This document shows positions 809 through 35,619 of a stretch of DNA of 39,712 nucleotides, one piece after another. A program made the position numbers and the translations under genes. The notes beneath the pieces are model-generated. The model saw only the letters and a program-made list of their open reading frames with translations, was not told the origin of the DNA and did not search any database. The stretch lies in the IMG/VR virus record IMGVR_UViG_2778261706_000022. One strand, written 5' to 3'. The DNA comes from a virus (lineage: Duplodnaviria; Heunggongvirae; Uroviricota; Caudoviricetes). Position 1 is the stretch's first letter, and each line of letters starts with the position of its first letter.

Positions 809-1546
809 TCATTCACTCTCTTTCAAACCAGTTTTAACTGTTTGTGGTTTTGGGTAAGGCTGGACTTTGAATAGCTTTGTGTTGAGGCGTTTTCTGGCCC
901 TCTTGTTCAGAAACCGGATGTAACGAAACTGTCGGAACTTATGAACACTGGCTCTGTCAATATTAGCCCTCAGATGTTCACCTCGTTGTCCGCCTCGTTT
1001 AATGGCATTCCTGCAAATCTCGTGATACCACTCGCCATCAAGTTCATAGAATATTGATTCATGGCTGCCTACATAATCAAAATTGCTTGCCTGATACACG
1101 ACACCAAGACAGCCACAACGCTCATCTGCAAACGACTGAACCCACTGTACCTGCGGATAAAGCTGCCTGATTAGCTTGAGCGCGTAACTGATTGCCCTTG
1201 ATTCGGAGTTTCTCGGCATACAGTCATGCAGCCATAGCCGGTTAAGCTCCATATATTCTCGGTTCTGCGTACCCGTTACGACGCGTGCACCACTGTTTGG
1301 GTTAAGGGCGTAACCCCATTGCATTACGCCAACAAGTTCCCGTTCTGAAAATATGCCCAGATGAAGGTAGGAGTTATTTACGAAACGGTGGCTGTAATGT
1401 TTATTGACGATGACCAGTCTGGCCAGCCAGCAACTTATTGTCTCAACCCGCAACTCACGGGAGCCATAACCAACGATATTGTCGTTATAGCGAATAAGTT
1501 CAGGCGTGCTGATGATTCGGGATGTGACTTGCTTTCTGTTCCCCAC
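809..1546 (-). CDS. mom: Mom-like DNA modification protein
   Basis: Terminal gene of the prophage, overlapped at its 5' end by a Com-like zinc-finger ORF as in Mu com-mom. Start is a GTG at 1546. Identity is by position and the com overlap, not by recalled Mom sequence. Confidence 0.6.
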
Positions 1547-29413: not shown

Positions 29414-29482
29414 ATCAGCCTCCGGTTCTCGCGTTCCCGGTAAGTTTAAAATAAAAATCCCGCGTTGTGGCGGGATTTGGGG

Positions 29483-29992
29483 TTAACGGGGAAGTGATTT
29501 TTCATACTGCCTGCAAACGGCGTCATACCCCATCAGCGTGCGTTCGGGCATTCCCATCGCGGCCAGCATTTTGCGGCGGTGCCATCGCTTGAGACGCTCC
29601 AGCACATCTGAGGCCAGGGCGGGGTGTTGCTCCAGCCACTGCCAGTTTGCCACACCTTCGCCGCCGTTTTGCGCGGCCGTCTGCGATTTCACCCAGCGGT
29701 TAAGGGCGGTTTCCGCACCATCAGAGATAAAGCCCTGCCGGTGCATCACCTTCCAGATGGCGCGAATTTTAGCGGTCACCGTACCCGGTTTTAAGGCCCG
29801 GTTAACCGGGTTCTGACGCACTTTAAAACCGCGTTTTTTGAAAACATCCAGCACGCGGGATAACTCATCCGGTGACATATCCCGGCAGCTGGTTTTGCCG
29901 GTGACCGCCAGTAGTACGGATGTGTAGGTTTCATCATCCAGGGCAAGCTCGCGTTTTGCCACATGAATGGCAGATATCAGTTTCCCTCTCAT
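29483..29992 (-). CDS. gemA: GemA-like regulatory protein
   Basis: LLAVTGKTSCRDMSPDELSRVLDVFKKRGF and LERLKRWHRR motifs match my recollection of Mu GemA. Confidence 0.7.
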   Translation of the reverse strand: MRGKLISAIHVAKRELALDDETYTSVLLAVTGKTSCRDMSPDELSRVLDVFKKRGFKVRQNPVNRALKPGTVTAKIRAIWKVMHRQGFISDGAETALNRWVKSQTAAQNGGEGVANWQWLEQHPALASDVLERLKRWHRRKMLAAMGMPERTLMGYDAVCRQYEKSLPR

Positions 29993-30285
29993 GCTGTATC
30001 AACACTCCTGCGGATATGATAGGTATTATTTTCCCGATCGAGCTGAACCCGATACTCCGGAGGAATCACAAAAATATTAAAACCATCATCAGTTTTTATT
30101 CTTGAGTAGCATTCCCCCTTATGATATCTGGCCAGTGCATTAATCAGAGAAGTCGCAGCCTGCCCAATCAGGTATTTTTTATGAAAAATACTGATAACTT
30201 TCCGGCACAGCCATCGTGTAATGACGAATGCACCGAAAAAGGATGTGATATATAAATACCAGAACAACTGCGAACTACTGTCCAT
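29989..30285 (-). CDS. Hypothetical membrane protein (98 aa)
   Basis: N-terminal TM helix (LFWYLYITSFFGAFVIT). AT-rich early-region gene. Confidence 0.4.
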   Translation of the reverse strand: MDSSSQLFWYLYITSFFGAFVITRWLCRKVISIFHKKYLIGQAATSLINALARYHKGECYSRIKTDDGFNIFVIPPEYRVQLDRENNTYHIRRSVDTA

Positions 30286-30472
30286 TATCTTTCTCCTTAT
30301 TCAGTCTTCTGCGGCATTCGGCACAGTCATCAGGGCTTTCAAATGTATCCGGCTCGCGATTATGAGCCAGATATAACCACCGTCCACATATACTGATATT
30401 TTCGCCTGTTTTAAAAAAATGATGCTTCCTGGCCATTAGTGGCCGCGCCCATCCAGCGGGTAGACTATTCAT
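30275..30472 (-). CDS. Hypothetical small Cys-containing protein (65 aa)
   Basis: ICGRW...DDCAEC pattern suggests a zinc-binding fold. Coupled to neighbours. Confidence 0.35.
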   Translation of the reverse strand: MNSLPAGWARPLMARKHHFFKTGENISICGRWLYLAHNREPDTFESPDDCAECRRRLNKEKDNGQ

Positions 30473-30800
30473 TTGCTTTATCCTCCATGCTGGACAGAAT
30501 CATATGTATTAATGTCGGGCGTGGAGATATACGCATTTCATTAAGCGTCTGAAGGGCAGCAACAGCTGCCTGTTTATCGGTGCCTTTGGCAATTTCAGCA
30601 AGAGAATGCACAATCCATAATGGGCTTAACGCTACGGCTGAATGCAGAATCATGTCATCCATAATAATTTCTGGCATATCCCGTTTGTCACATTCTTTAT
30701 CCATAAAAGAAACGATTTTTTCTGCATCTTCCGGTTTCATGCCTCCGGCGATGAGAATTTTACGATATTCATAAGACGATCTTAATTCAATACTCATCAT
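30465..30800 (-). CDS. Hypothetical protein (111 aa)
   Basis: ORF in the early operon; no recognisable motif. Confidence 0.4.
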   Translation of the reverse strand: MMSIELRSSYEYRKILIAGGMKPEDAEKIVSFMDKECDKRDMPEIIMDDMILHSAVALSPLWIVHSLAEIAKGTDKQAAVAALQTLNEMRISPRPTLIHMILSSMEDKANE

Positions 30801-30812
30801 TCACCTGCCTGT

Positions 30813-31205
30813 TTAATCAGTTTCCAGTGCTTTGCTACGGGCAACAGCCTCACACTCAAAAAATACCGACTCCGGCACACGCTCCTTTAATTCACGAACA
30901 AGAAAATCATTAACGAGTTCATGACGTCTTATATTTCTTTCCTTTTCCTCCTGGCGCAATACAGCAAGGCGGTATTCAACAGTCCGGCGTTGTTTCTGAA
31001 AGACAGCCAGTGCTTTTCTGGCAGAGTTACGCAATGTATCATCGCCACAGGGTTCGTATTCAAGCTGAAATTTAATCTCTTCAATGGTTTCTTTTATTTT
31101 TGCCAGCAAGCTAAGACAGTCGCTGATTGTCTTCAGTTTTTCATTATCAATATAACTTCTCACGCATTCACCTCCCGTCATTCCGGTAAAGCTGAAATAT
31201 GGCAC
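30813..31205 (-). CDS. Hypothetical coiled-coil protein (130 aa)
   Basis: ORF in the early operon with heptad-like charged/hydrophobic periodicity. Confidence 0.4.
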   Translation of the reverse strand: MPYFSFTGMTGGECVRSYIDNEKLKTISDCLSLLAKIKETIEEIKFQLEYEPCGDDTLRNSARKALAVFQKQRRTVEYRLAVLRQEEKERNIRRHELVNDFLVRELKERVPESVFFECEAVARSKALETD

Positions 31206-31489
31206 CAGTGCGTCACCTGTCCGTCCTCATCTTCAAGGCAGGCTCCGGTTTCTTCATCAATAAAAAAGCCTTCATACCCCATATGGCCGATGCGCAGTTC
31301 CTGTTGGTCACCATACTGAACAATCAGCACGACAGCCTCCATATCAGGCGGGAAAGCATCATTCAGTGAATGCCAGGGATAACCGCGCAAATCCCCGAAA
31401 TAAACACCGGTCAGCGTTCCGCCACAGACCGGCATTCCGACGGCACACACAAGGGGTTCATCTGATTCAACAAATAATGTCGTTATCAT
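31178..31489 (-). CDS. Hypothetical protein (103 aa)
   Basis: ORF in the early operon; start may be an internal ATG. Confidence 0.4.
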   Translation of the reverse strand: MITTLFVESDEPLVCAVGMPVCGGTLTGVYFGDLRGYPWHSLNDAFPPDMEAVVLIVQYGDQQELRIGHMGYEGFFIDEETGACLEDEDGQVTHWCHISALPE

Positions 31490-32037
31490 GGCATTAATTC
31501 CCGTAATACAACATCTTCGGCAGTCCGACGACGGTGATAAATAAAACTCACCGTGCCCTCGGATAATTCAAATTTCTCGCCGATTTCCCTAAAGGTAAGA
31601 CGCCGTGGTGATTCAGCATCCCGTAATTCACGAATAAGACGAACATCATCGTCAGGTATGCGGGTGAAGGGCAGCAACTCTCCGTATTTTTTCATGCTTA
31701 CGCCAATATATCGCGCCCGATTGTGGACAGAATCCCGGTCTCGCCCCAGATATTCTCCTATTTGCTTACCGGTCATTGTTCTGGCATTTTTTCGGATAAA
31801 TTTATCTTCATCAGGTTTAAATCTGAGGCGTTTGCATTTGAGCAACTCCGGGTAAGTACCGCGTAATAAAACAATCCGGTTATGTACACCCCAGAAACTT
31901 CTTTTTATCCTGACAGCAATATCCTTAACCGGGGTGGATGGATAAAGCGCAATCAGCAGCGCATCTTCTTCAGGTGTCCATGCGCGAACATGAGCGGGTG
32001 CACGGCCTTTTCTCCCCATGGGTTGTAATATCATCAT
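31486..32037 (-). CDS. Hypothetical DNA-binding protein (183 aa)
   Basis: WTPEEDALLIALY (Myb/SANT-like) near the N-terminus and LTFREIGEKFELSEGTVSFI (HTH-like) near the C-terminus. Confidence 0.45.
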   Translation of the reverse strand: MMILQPMGRKGRAPAHVRAWTPEEDALLIALYPSTPVKDIAVRIKRSFWGVHNRIVLLRGTYPELLKCKRLRFKPDEDKFIRKNARTMTGKQIGEYLGRDRDSVHNRARYIGVSMKKYGELLPFTRIPDDDVRLIRELRDAESPRRLTFREIGEKFELSEGTVSFIYHRRRTAEDVVLRELMP

Positions 32038-32040
32038 GCA

Positions 32041-32556
32041 TCACCCCCTGACTCGCTTTTCAGCAGCATAAAACTCATCAGACAGAATTTCGGTCATTTT
32101 CTGATTTGCGGGTTTTACGCCGCACTCAAGGTAAATCACATCGTCAACGCAGAACCACTTCACAGGGCCAAACATGATTGCCGAGAAATCAATACCCAGC
32201 CAGAACAACAGTGCATCGGTTCTGGCATACGTGACGGGCGAATATTCACGCCACAGACTGTTAAGTTCGTCAGAGGCAACGCGCAGGGCTTTGGGAATAC
32301 GTGATGTGCGCGGTGTGCAGCTCCAGCCATTCGACGCAGTCGGTTTTCGCCATAAGTCGCGATGAAAAGGATATTTGTCATCCATAAAGCGCAGCCCTTT
32401 AAAACAAAAGCCACTGATACCGGATACAAATACCGACCGGCACGCAACATTCAGCACGGCCTCAAGGCGTTTTGCCTCATCCTTAACTTTCTGGCAGTCC
32501 TGCTGATATTTTTGCCACGCGGCCAGCGCGGAAGGGTTTGATGTTTTAAAGAACAT
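32041..32556 (-). CDS. Hypothetical protein (171 aa)
   Basis: ORF coupled to neighbours in the early operon. Confidence 0.45.
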   Translation of the reverse strand: MFFKTSNPSALAAWQKYQQDCQKVKDEAKRLEAVLNVACRSVFVSGISGFCFKGLRFMDDKYPFHRDLWRKPTASNGWSCTPRTSRIPKALRVASDELNSLWREYSPVTYARTDALLFWLGIDFSAIMFGPVKWFCVDDVIYLECGVKPANQKMTEILSDEFYAAEKRVRG

Positions 32557-33089
32557 TACGCCACCTCCGCAGATATCCCGGCAGGCGCGGCCGTCCGGTC
32601 AACAATCAGGTAACGCAGAACGCGCGAGGTGATATTCCAGCCGCTTAAACCGCAGATAATGACACCCAGGCGTATGTCGATATACGCCATCACAAACTGG
32701 GGCACGCCTTCTTTCATGGCCTGCTCATCAACTTCAGCCACCACATAAACGGTTTCACAGGTCAGAACGCCCTGAGCAAATTCCCACGCCATTGACGGAA
32801 TATCATGCCCCTCAATCCACGGCAGGGATTTTCTGAAGCTGCACCACTGAACATCATCAGCCGCACCTTCCTGGCTGCATTTGCGACGAACCGGCTGCAC
32901 CGGGCGGGGACGCGGAATATCATAAAAACCGTTACATTCCGTCAGCACCCCGGCATCGACCGCATCACGCAGAAAATAAACCATCGAGGATGGCGGCATA
33001 TTCATTTTTTCAGCCAGAATGCCGCAGGTCAGACGCCCGTAAATACTCAGCCAGTTTTTAACCCCTTCAAGCACTTTTGCACCAATCAT
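32556..33089 (-). CDS. Hypothetical protein (177 aa)
   Basis: ORF coupled to neighbours (ATG overlaps the upstream stop). Confidence 0.45.
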   Translation of the reverse strand: MIGAKVLEGVKNWLSIYGRLTCGILAEKMNMPPSSMVYFLRDAVDAGVLTECNGFYDIPRPRPVQPVRRKCSQEGAADDVQWCSFRKSLPWIEGHDIPSMAWEFAQGVLTCETVYVVAEVDEQAMKEGVPQFVMAYIDIRLGVIICGLSGWNITSRVLRYLIVDRTAAPAGISAEVA

Positions 33090-33092
33090 GAA

Positions 33093-33635
33093 TTATTCCT
33101 CCGTCAGCGCCACATATTCAGAATGTTTAATCTCCTGGCATTCTTCAGGAATACCCCCTTTTATTTCCCTGCCATAAGCGCCTACTTTAAACACCACGCA
33201 CAGGGCATCACGGGAGAGCGACGGGGTCCACCAGGAGTCCATGTTAAACATGGAGGGGATTCTCATTACCCCCAGCTTTTCACAGATCCAGACAAGGAAA
33301 TCAGGACGCTTTCTTAACTCGCGTTCAGCGGCTTCAATCATTGCGGCAATCGCCGGTCCTTCAGGGCATGACTCATCAGGTCTGGCAATAAAGCACGGTC
33401 CGTCCCCGATAAAAGCCACATCATCGCGCTTACGCCAGCCCGCAGGCAGAGCACCAGAAAAATAAAACTCACTGATTACGTCCATGGCAAACGGCTTTAA
33501 GCGCAATCCGGCAGCGCCTGTATTTTTCAGTAATGCCCGAAGAATACTGTTGCGTAGCGGTAAAACAGTCTGTTGATATTTGGTGAAATATTTATTTGTC
33601 TGCACACGGTCTAATTTGAAATAAAAATATGCCAT
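33093..33635 (-). CDS. Hypothetical protein (180 aa)
   Basis: First ORF downstream of gam in the early operon. Confidence 0.45.
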   Translation of the reverse strand: MAYFYFKLDRVQTNKYFTKYQQTVLPLRNSILRALLKNTGAAGLRLKPFAMDVISEFYFSGALPAGWRKRDDVAFIGDGPCFIARPDESCPEGPAIAAMIEAAERELRKRPDFLVWICEKLGVMRIPSMFNMDSWWTPSLSRDALCVVFKVGAYGREIKGGIPEECQEIKHSEYVALTEE

Positions 33636-33732: not shown

Positions 33733-34263
33733 TTATTTATTCAGTCCGGCGTCCTGTTCAAAAGGCTCGACATAAAAACTTTCAGCGCCTTTATTCACCT
33801 TAATACCGGCAATGCCTTTCACTGCATCCGGCTCCGCTAGGACCGCTTCCTTGTTCACTTCCTCTTTCGTGCGGATGAATCGCTCAAGCCCCATACGGCG
33901 CAGCATTTCAATCACACCTTCCACATCACGGCTGACGCTGCATGATGGATTTCCCAGCCGCCATGACACTGTTCCGGTGGTCAGATTGGCTGTTTTGGTT
34001 TTGCCGCCGTTCGTCAGCTCATCGCGGTTGGTTTTGCACCAGTCCTGAATCCCCTTAAAAAGCACTTTGATTTCTTTTTTAAGGTTTTCAATCTGCGGCG
34101 TATAACGGGCGGTGATTTCTGCCACTTCATCATTCATCGCCGTTTCCAGCCGTAGCGCCTCTCGCTGAATATCGCCCAGGGTACGGATATCGCGGCTGAC
34201 TTCTTCGCGGGTCTGCGGTGCAGCCTCGGCTGCGGCCTTTAATTTTGTAACACGTTTAGCCAT
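33733..34263 (-). CDS. gam: Gam, host-nuclease inhibitor (Ku-like DNA-end binding protein)
   Basis: RLETAMNDEVAEITARY, NRDELTNGGKTKTANLTTGTVSWR and RFIRTKEEVNKEAVLAEP match my recollection of Mu Gam. Confidence 0.85.
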   Translation of the reverse strand: MAKRVTKLKAAAEAAPQTREEVSRDIRTLGDIQREALRLETAMNDEVAEITARYTPQIENLKKEIKVLFKGIQDWCKTNRDELTNGGKTKTANLTTGTVSWRLGNPSCSVSRDVEGVIEMLRRMGLERFIRTKEEVNKEAVLAEPDAVKGIAGIKVNKGAESFYVEPFEQDAGLNK

Positions 34264-34274
34264 TTTGTTTTTCC

Positions 34275-34568
34275 TTATTGCAGTGTGCCTGATGCTTTAT
34301 GCACGCGGTGGCGTTTAATGATGGCATCCGCCCCAAAAGCCTGTACAGATGCCTGAAATTCCGCTGAGAGAAACTGAATAATTTCAGGACTGTGATACTG
34401 GAGAATACTTGCATAAACGCCACAGAGTGACGTCGGCCTGTTATTCGTATCACGTTCTGTTTTTACATCCACACCAATCTTTTCATGCACTTCAACACAG
34501 TCATTGCCTGCCGGTTTTTCGTCATGCGAAACATGCTTAAATTCAAAAATAACGCGTACTTTGCTCAT
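34275..34568 (-). CDS. Hypothetical protein, paralogue B of a tandem pair
   Basis: N-terminus MSKVRVIFEFKH resembles MSKVVRIIFEYKE of the upstream gene. Internal ATG at 34568 chosen as start. Confidence 0.45.
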   Translation of the reverse strand: MSKVRVIFEFKHVSHDEKPAGNDCVEVHEKIGVDVKTERDTNNRPTSLCGVYASILQYHSPEIIQFLSAEFQASVQAFGADAIIKRHRVHKASGTLQ

Positions 34569-34572
34569 GGAA

Positions 34573-34845
34573 TTACCCCTGCTGATTAAATTCATTACCT
34601 TTAATAACCCCGGAACGCATGCTCATATCTTTCATGAGCGCACTGGCTTTCATTGCCACAAGTTCAGCAAAGTCTCTGCTTTCCGCGAGCATAACCACCC
34701 CAAAAATCATGGCGGGTCCATCACCTTTCTGCTTTATCCCGGTTGAACGTATGTCCAGACTTACCCCCATGCGCACTGTTCCATCAGCGTTTTTATGGAT
34801 AACGTGCTCCTTGTATTCGAAAATAATGCGTACGACTTTACTCAT
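34573..34845 (-). CDS. Hypothetical protein, paralogue A of a tandem pair
   Basis: 90-aa ORF sharing its N-terminal motif with the next gene. Confidence 0.45.
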   Translation of the reverse strand: MSKVVRIIFEYKEHVIHKNADGTVRMGVSLDIRSTGIKQKGDGPAMIFGVVMLAESRDFAELVAMKASALMKDMSMRSGVIKGNEFNQQG

Positions 34846-35123
34846 CCTCTGGTCCTCGTTCTGTTTGGATAACTGACCCGGCGTCTGACCTCACGGCAGA
34901 ACCGAATCATGGCATTAAAGGCTTCTTCCTCCGTCACCGCTTCCGGTATCCCCGGAACCAGTAACTGCTCCTGTTCATCACGTCCATGACGCGCCATAAC
35001 CTCAATCACATGCCGTACCGTGGCAGGCTTTCCGGCAACTATCGGCAATGCACCTTCCGGCAGGACGTAACCAAACTCAATAAGACCACTCGACCACGCC
35101 CATGCAATGAGATTTTTTTTCAC
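34842..35123 (-). CDS. Hypothetical early protein (93 aa)
   Basis: ORF in the B-proximal early region. Confidence 0.4.
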   Translation of the reverse strand: MKKNLIAWAWSSGLIEFGYVLPEGALPIVAGKPATVRHVIEVMARHGRDEQEQLLVPGIPEAVTEEEAFNAMIRFCREVRRRVSYPNRTRTRG

Positions 35124-35124
35124 C

Positions 35125-35391
35125 TCACACCTCCCAGTAAACCGTGCAGCCGCTGATGCGGGTGGCCTTCACACGGCGGCGCAGGCCGTTGGTCTGTATG
35201 GTGATTTCAATTTCACCGGTTCCCTGCACGTTGCCTACCGGCGGCGTGGTTTTCAGTGCAAAACGTTGCGGATAGCGCTTACTGCGTTCCAGTACCGCAC
35301 CGGCAAGTTCGGTCAGACGGCGCGCGCTGTTCAGGGAGTCGAATAAATTCATTTTGTTACCGCAGGATTGCATATTCATATAACACCTCAT
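35125..35391 (-). CDS. Hypothetical early protein (88 aa)
   Basis: ORF in the B-proximal early region; start uncertain. Confidence 0.35.
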   Translation of the reverse strand: MRCYMNMQSCGNKMNLFDSLNSARRLTELAGAVLERSKRYPQRFALKTTPPVGNVQGTGEIEITIQTNGLRRRVKATRISGCTVYWEV

Positions 35392-35619
35392 TTAGCTGAC
35401 TTGTTTCGCACCAACAGAACGGCATATTCCGCTGTAAACGTCTGTCGCACCTTCGCGATCAAGTCCGGCAGATATCACCATTCGTGTGCGGTCATTAAAT
35501 TCAAAAAGTAAATCGCCACATTCTTTATTTTCGGCCAGTGAAATCACCTTCACGTTATCGAAATTAACCAGGTAAAAGCGTCCGTAAATATCAGGAATAT
35601 TAAATACCGCCATAATCAC
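35392..35619 (-). CDS. Hypothetical early protein (75 aa)
   Basis: ORF immediately downstream of B (the Mu kil position). Confidence 0.4.
   Translation of the reverse strand: MIMAVFNIPDIYGRFYLVNFDNVKVISLAENKECGDLLFEFNDRTRMVISAGLDREGATDVYSGICRSVGAKQVS

Follow-up and report, generated by a model that had tools for sequence, protein, structure and literature searches.

Five small open reading frames (ORFs), which lie contiguously on the minus strand at positions 29989–31489 of a 39,712-nucleotide virus sequence (IMG/VR record IMGVR_UViG_2778261706_000022, hereafter the window), are best explained as exchangeable, dispensable early-operon cargo that acts on host components; belief in this reading slightly outweighs doubt, and its structural part is much firmer than its functional part. 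The window comprises a Mu-like prophage that is nearly complete and has its genes on the minus strand. The five ORFs, named w103, w116, w110, w65 and w98 from right to left, occupy a slot (Table 1) that appears to belong to the early operon (of the Pe type) in a Mu-like prophage of the Sp18 type from Escherichia coli O157. The slot lies between the gp12 and helix-turn-helix (HTH) genes and gemA, where Mu has gp13–gp15. As transcription runs from right to left, the block lies upstream of gemA, and not downstream of it as an earlier note on this DNA had stated.

The variability of the slot is seen in related loci gathered from E. coli genomes and IMG/VR, in which the interval from the gp12 homologue to gemA holds 40 distinct cassette sequences in 15 architectures. 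The window represents the type HTH gene, w103, w116, w110, w65 and w98. In other cassettes, the HTH gene is followed by w103 and then by gp13-like and gp14-like genes; by a gene for a 61-residue protein with two transmembrane (TM) segments, w110, w65 and w98 (allele a or b); by w103, w116, a w110 with an altered C-terminus and a DUF2513 gene on the opposite strand; or by w103 and allele b of w98. Homology to the window ends at gene borders (30812/13, 31172, 31480 and 30288), and two further breakpoints are intragenic, one just inside gemA (29968) and one inside w110 (30553). The 15 architectures and the position of most breakpoints at gene borders show that each gene is an independent module, shuffled by recombination among related prophages, and the description of this stretch in the earlier note as a hypervariable semi-essential region is borne out.

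The alternative cargo of the slot comprises homologues of Mu gp13 and gp14, the 61-residue two-TM protein, the DUF2513 gene and insertion sequence (IS) elements. In the DUF2513 cassette, w65 and w98 are replaced and the C-terminus of w110 is changed; the gene itself (positions 962–1372, plus strand, of locus L003 from E. coli strain 102651, and present also in locus L125) matches its Pfam family at an E-value of 6.6e-5, which is below the family cut-off. IS1203 resides inside w103 in E. coli 95NR1 (locus L153, 2087–3300), with the same two-piece BLAST match in the sister strain 95JB1, and in strain S1-CAM-01-A an ISKpn26-type element of the IS5 family stands where the distal genes would be (locus L007, 1055–2035). 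Because w103 is interrupted by IS1203 in 95NR1, and because many prophages are without two to four of the five genes, the slot genes are not needed for the survival of the lysogen.

All five ORFs are genuine protein-coding genes under selection and not chance frames, as indicated by four kinds of evidence. A Shine–Dalgarno-like motif (GGGAGGTG, AGGCAGGTG, GGAGG or AGGAG) stands ahead of every one of them; all are annotated in RefSeq as coding sequences, under the name 'hypothetical protein'; each matches a PHROG family at an E-value between 1e-34 and 1e-68; and the ratio of nonsynonymous to synonymous polymorphism (pN/pS) among distinct homologous copies is low, at 0.13 for w103, 0.15 for w116, 0.17 for w110 and 0.12 for w65, with a value of 0.41 for w98 that is pooled over two old alleles. 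Frameshifted copies exist and are rare. The PHROGs matched are exclusively families of 'unknown function'. An antisense ORF at 30921–31319 on the plus strand was dismissed, the substitution patterns matching the minus-strand frames.

The five contiguous ORFs are thus present as the earlier note had listed them, with two corrections of length. Its values of 98, 65 and 103 residues hold, the ORF of 111 residues is annotated at 110, and the ORF of 130 residues, which in that version starts at 31205, most likely begins at the GTG at 31163 and encodes 116 residues. The latter codon has the Shine–Dalgarno motif GGGAGGTG 5 nucleotides upstream and is the start chosen by the Prokaryotic Genome Annotation Pipeline, and the alignment to phrog_6158 begins at residue 15 of the long form. 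The translational coupling claimed for the block is tight without being uniform. Overlaps are found between the HTH gene and w103 (4 nucleotides), w110 and w65 (8 nucleotides), w65 and w98 (11 nucleotides), and w98 and gemA (4 nucleotides); at both ends of the block the overlap has the form ATGA, in which the ATG of w103 overlaps the stop codon of the HTH gene and the stop codon of w98 overlaps the start of gemA. The remaining two junctions are gaps of 14–15 nucleotides, with a strong Shine–Dalgarno motif in each.

The genes lie head to tail on the strand of the early operon, without detectable promoters of their own. Lysogens of Mu keep the early operon repressed, and it is transcribed after induction or infection. 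The five proteins would be made only early in lytic development, alongside the transposition, Gam and GemA functions, and would target host components rather than the core machinery of the phage. Early-operon accessory slots of temperate phages are a repeated source of host-defence inhibitors and host take-over factors. The roles that can be proposed for the individual genes are drawn from sequence features: w103 may be a binding decoy or an inhibitor of a conserved host protein, possibly a DNA-binding protein; w65 may depend on zinc to bind a host macromolecule that is conserved, whether a nucleic acid or a transcription factor, replication factor or similar protein; and w98 may be tethered to the inner membrane via its conserved N-terminal segment, exposing a dimorphic cytoplasmic domain. 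For w116 and w110, which are predicted to be helical, no role is proposed. It is a tentative prospect, not an expectation, that one or more of the genes would be the first known member of a new class of phage effectors that act early and on the host, the candidates being w65, w103 and w98. If so, the breadth of the w65 family, with about 1000 clusters in Mu-like, lambdoid and virulent PB1-like phages, would be in keeping with a host target that is conserved; w103 would fit a DNA mimic, or a decoy that inhibits a DNA-binding or defence protein of the host; and the dimorphic tethered domain of w98 could be a specificity determinant in phage–phage or phage–defence conflict. The features worth carrying forward are accordingly, for w65, the size and invariant signature of its family, for w103, its unusual constraint and charge, and for w98, its dimorphism. 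The slot is experimentally tractable. For each gene its natural variants already amount to near-isogenic 'knock-outs' and exchanges of alleles, and if the genes prove to be without phenotype, they still constitute a well-documented case of modular exchange in Mu-like phages.

Among the five, w65 is the most portable lead, with a large family, an invariant His-Cys3 signature, no entry in Pfam and a distribution over temperate and virulent phages of several genera. The family, which is uncurated, comprises 989 cluster representatives at an E-value of 1e-3 or lower, and in 146 relatives that are 28–59% identical to w65 the only invariant columns are His18, Cys29, Cys50 and Cys53. The last two cysteines form a Cys50-x2-Cys53 motif at the start of a predicted helix (residues 51–64), and the AlphaFold2 model of the protein, with a mean predicted local distance difference test (pLDDT) score of 77.7, consists of β strands followed by a C-terminal helix. 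This arrangement of one histidine and three cysteines in knuckle-like spacing, the final two of which form a CxxC at the start of a helix, resembles that of small zinc-ribbon or treble-clef phage proteins, and w65 is probably a zinc-binding protein with a His-Cys3 site. No member of the family has a Pfam match across the w65 domain itself, and a fold search of the model against the PDB gave no match; the nearest models in BFVD are uncharacterised proteins of PB1-like phages. A BPTI/Kunitz assignment was also considered and rejected: two variants were matched at a marginal E-value of 0.0035 when the family profile was compared with the PDB, and fold searches with the w65 model recovered no Kunitz domain. 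The spacing of the two proteins is collinear (...YF..., a cysteine, 21 residues and the next cysteine), probably by chance. Lambdoid prophages have relatives of w65 downstream of their replication genes, and further relatives are found in virulent phages, both PB1-like phages of Pseudomonas and Wifcevirus phages of E. coli. A function for w65, if found, would provide annotation for roughly a thousand protein clusters.

The w98 protein begins with an aromatic hydrophobic segment at approximately residues 7–25, followed by the arginine/lysine cluster RWLCRK. The 17-residue core of the segment, LFWYLYITSFFGAFVIT, has a Kyte–Doolittle average of about 1.6 by hand summation, and a role as a membrane anchor protein is plausible for w98, if borderline. 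If the segment is an anchor, the positive residues that follow it predict a cytoplasmic location for the C-terminal domain. The gene occurs as two alleles of equal length, which encode 82% identical amino acids over codons 1–33 and 34% identical amino acids over codons 34–98, between flanks that are 97–99% identical at the nucleotide level; the hydrophobic segment itself hardly differs from one allele to the other. w98 is absent from the GTDB species-representative genomes, and no allele beyond the two already known was found there or in IMG/VR.

Several points weigh against the reading of the slot as host-directed cargo. The related loci were collected by searching with the five proteins themselves, which biases the frequencies of the architectures and leaves the combinatorics unaffected. 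Expression within the early operon is deduced from the gene layout and from what is known of Mu. The hydrophobic segment of w98 is borderline for a TM helix, its best 19-residue Kyte–Doolittle mean being 1.34. No function, be it the host take-over, anti-defence or exclusion envisaged in the earlier note or any other, is assigned to any of the five by homology, fold match or literature. Finally, w103 is far more conserved than would be expected of cargo and heads 29 of the 40 cassettes, which may point to a lineage-specific core function.

This last point bears most directly on the view that the five ORFs, and mainly w103, encode early housekeeping proteins specific to this lineage, which would modulate transposition, replication or the early-to-middle switch and be functional counterparts of Mu gp13–gp15, a view that is unlikely, if the most probable of the alternatives. 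The ORFs share with Mu gp13, gp14 and gp15 (E14, E15) the map position between gp12 and gemA, the strand and the operon context, and are likewise small and tightly packed. Among the related Mu-like phages sampled from E. coli and Salmonella, most have w103, which was found only in these hosts. In the comparison with Salmonella Mu-like phages, its synonymous divergence (dS) is 1.1–1.3, saturated like that of its neighbours, and its nonsynonymous divergence (dN) is only 0.11, compared with 0.27–0.48 for gp11, gp12, GemA and Mor; dN/dS for w103 is therefore about 0.09, the same value as for the endolysin. Saturated dS combined with low dN indicates that w103 is strongly constrained and was not recently transferred, and it is the least cargo-like of the five. 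On the other side, the number of genes differs, with three in Mu and five here, and no sequence similarity between the two sets is detectable: BLASTP of the five proteins against the Mu early proteins, gp13, gp14 and gp15 included, gave nothing better than an E-value of 0.1, in a comparison in which the homologues of gp11, gp12, Gam, GemA and Mor scored between 1e-13 and 1e-89. The earlier note had named clear homology to the Mu gp12–gp15 housekeeping proteins as evidence that would count against accessory functions; none is seen in the five ORFs, and the true homologues of gp11 and gp12 are located farther upstream. Homologues of gp13 and gp14 occupy the same slot in some relatives of the window prophage, and because w103 co-occurs with them, it is not their replacement but an addition to them. 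Each of w116, w110, w65 and w98 is missing from many otherwise near-identical prophages, and the annotation of Mu gp13–gp15 itself gives no function that could be carried over.

The w103 protein contains 18 acidic and two basic residues and no lysine, which gives it an isoelectric point of 4.05 and a net charge of −16. Its AlphaFold2 model, built from a shallow alignment, is all-β and, at a pLDDT of 50.7, too poor for a fold search. The end of the protein, VTHW...LPE, resembles THWMPLP at the end of DUF551 (PF04448), an uncharacterised domain that is common in the early regions of enterobacterial prophages, and a W...PPD motif is found in w103 at a similar distance upstream. Pfam detects DUF551 in none of 12 members of the w103 family, and an hhalign comparison of the family with five verified DUF551 domains aligned only 13 C-terminal columns, at a probability of 28%. 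A link of w103 to DUF551 is no more than a suspicion drawn from the C-terminal THW..P motif.

A second alternative, judged quite improbable, holds that the slot genes are morons expressed in the lysogen, where they would protect the host by superinfection exclusion or anti-phage defence. The DNA of the slot is foreign-looking and, as the earlier note had also recognised, AT-rich: its GC content is 43.8%, against 53.4% for the whole window, which places the block in the lowest 0.4% of 1.5-kb windows, with w103 at 50% and the other four genes at 40–46%. The cargo varies at a fixed hotspot and includes small, possibly membrane-bound proteins, namely w98 and the alternative 61-residue two-TM protein. 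A classical moron has a promoter and a terminator of its own and is expressed in the lysogen. Neither feature is evident for the slot genes, which differ from classical morons in this respect and are tightly packed within the repressed early operon, on the same strand. Promoter-like sites are not above chance (5, against 4.5 expected). Terminator-like sites number 7, against 3.1 ± 2.0 expected, and those within the block are weak, with stems of 5–6 bp, apart from one 9-bp stem on the opposite strand. The only cargo of the slot arranged like a classical moron is the alternative DUF2513 gene, which lies on the opposite strand as is typical of morons. No slot protein, the DUF2513 product and the other alternative cargo included, matches PADLOC (PADLOC-DB 2.0; best E-value among the five ORFs 0.035). 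What the slot does share with moron loci and with the nin region of lambda is the exchange of gene-sized modules mostly at their borders, the atypical base composition and the small size of the genes, and relatives of w65 are located in such mosaic regions of lambdoid prophages. Of what is known, the slot comes closest to the semi-essential early region of Mu, and in broader terms to the mosaic regions in which temperate phages carry accessory genes.

The earlier note had further proposed that a small membrane protein next to a small Cys-rich protein, here w98 and w65, forms a kil-like or toxin/modulator pair, in which a membrane toxin is controlled by its Cys-rich partner, and this is highly improbable. 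Some observations would fit such a pair: the two genes overlap by 11 nucleotides, an allele of w98 follows w65 in 16 of the 16 distinct E. coli Mu-like cassettes that have w65, and the N-terminus of w98 is hydrophobic. Each gene, however, occurs without the other. Allele b of w98 lies directly upstream of gemA without w65, w110 and w116 in three architectures (L006, L072/L114 and L074/L122), and w98 is missing beside relatives of w65 (63–73% identical to it) in lambdoid prophages, as well as in a Mu-like phage in which w65 abuts gemA (L026); w65 also occurs without w98 in the virulent PB1-like and Wifcevirus phages, as it does in every phage type apart from the E. coli Mu-like cassettes. Moreover, w65 is 98% identical beside w98 alleles that share only about 50% identity, and the constancy of w65 while the w98 allele switches means that the two do not co-vary. 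Neither protein resembles Mu Kil or any toxin family, and none of the five ORFs has BLASTP similarity to Mu Kil or a match to a toxin family. Judged from these sequence comparisons, w65 and w98 are not an obligate toxin/modulator pair. The characterisation of the two members fared better in part: the hydrophobic segment of w98 is present with a borderline score, and 'Cys-rich' overstates the three cysteines in the 65 residues of w65, in which the invariant His18, Cys29, Cys50 and Cys53 nevertheless stand out. It is scarcely credible that the ORFs, or some of them, are remnants without function or frames that arose by chance in AT-rich DNA, a notion that could appeal to the want of any known domain and to annotation as merely 'hypothetical protein', given pN/pS well below 1 for all five, the Shine–Dalgarno sites and the full-length conservation of w103, w116, w65 and w110 across genera.

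Searches for known families gave a uniform result. Pfam, NCBIfam and PADLOC scans returned no family match for any of the five (in Pfam, none at an E-value of 1 or lower), and sequence searches of the PDB, with single sequences as well as family profiles, gave only matches at the level of chance. Among the candidates rejected were coiled-coil and tetratricopeptide-repeat noise for w116 and a match to 'Art22' for w110 with a domain E-value of 0.15. Word-indexed homologue searches with w65, w103 and w116 returned only proteins named 'hypothetical protein', from Enterobacterales, and family searches with w116 and w110 gave no informative match. The sequences are already public as hypothetical proteins, and a literature search by RefSeq accession, Sp18, the Mu semi-essential region and gp13–gp15 found no paper that treats these genes.

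The w116 family is marked by a conserved RLAVLRQEEKExN motif. A relative that is 64% identical stands alone between gp12 and a 188-residue ORF in a Salmonella Mu-like phage, and another, 46% identical, is found at the end of a Serratia prophage, adjoining a PrtN-like (PyocinActivator) gene. The motif is shared by relatives in loci L146 (2995–3585), L148 (2971–3372) and L151 (4001–4357); these relatives adjoin a small ORF that by eye is like an AlpA-type excisionase or regulator, with a probable integrase next to it in L148. Relatives occur in other integrative elements as well. Occurrence in such other elements indicates that the w116 family is not specific to Mu-like phages. The w110 protein has the conserved motif LSPxWI...DKxAAVAAL and is 34% identical to gp14 of SfMu, where the gene is inserted between homologues of Mu gp13 and gp14.

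Table 1. Slot genes and selected neighbours in the window, in the order in which they are transcribed.
Feature	Coordinates	Strand	Residues	Remarks
Gam	33733–34263	minus		
gp11 homologue	32556–33089	minus		67% identity to Mu gp11 (BLASTP); Pfam Gp11_C
gp12 homologue	32041–32556	minus		55% identity to Mu gp12 (BLASTP)
HTH gene, upstream border	31486–32037	minus	183	Tandem HTH (SANT/Myb-like); Pfam HTH; phrog_323
w103	31178–31489	minus	103	First gene of the slot; very acidic; phrog_6925 (E 1.9e-52, unknown function)
w116	30813–31163	minus	116	GTG start; predicted helical
w110	30465–30797	minus	110	Predicted helical; phrog_1988
w65	30275–30472	minus	65	Basic; phrog_2358
w98	29989–30285	minus	98	Basic; phrog_17269
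gemA, downstream border	29483–29992	minus		Pfam GemA (E 2e-30); 43% identical to Mu GemA

From right to left, the prophage carries a Ner-type HTH gene, the transposase, the MuB ATPase, small ORFs, Gam, a 180-residue ORF, gp11, gp12 and the HTH gene that borders the slot, and continues leftward through the five ORFs to GemA, Mor and the endolysin. The gp11 and gp12 homologues fix the register with the map of Mu. The C-terminal two-thirds of the bordering HTH protein is 31% identical to Mu gp9; the protein is also similar to sigma-70 region 4, and in related E. coli prophages its gene occurs mainly in versions that are either about 72–73% or 87–100% identical to the window copy. An Rfam scan of the whole window found no RNA family.

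The block and its surroundings, 2.7 kb in all, are 100% identical in many E. coli O157 chromosomes, and the region is matched in 232 of 5,426 complete E. coli genomes. The likeness of the prophage to Sp18 of E. coli O157:H7 Sakai and to the related Phi804-3 is drawn from this identity in O157 chromosomes. Sp18 has been described as a Mu-like prophage that appears intact and does not circularise (PMC2669165, PMC7430833), in papers that do not analyse the five slot genes.

Other parts of the early region show comparable features. The 180-residue ORF in the interval from Gam to gp11 (33093–33635, minus strand) has no Pfam match and in related prophages is either absent or swapped for a version that is only 23–24% identical, which marks a second variable slot. 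The interval from MuB to Gam (34275–35619, minus strand) contains five small ORFs without a Pfam match, among them an ORF at the position of Mu kil, where a related Salmonella phage (L152) has a match to the Kil family. Since these ORFs are equally without Pfam matches, the five slot ORFs are not more obscure than the rest of the early region. On the far side of the slot, a strong terminator-like hairpin (29455–29478, minus strand), with a 9-bp stem AAATCCCGC...GCGGGATTT followed by TTATTTT, is placed in the 69-nucleotide gap between gemA and mor, two genes that overlap in Mu itself, and the hairpin could serve to attenuate early transcription ahead of the middle-operon activator.

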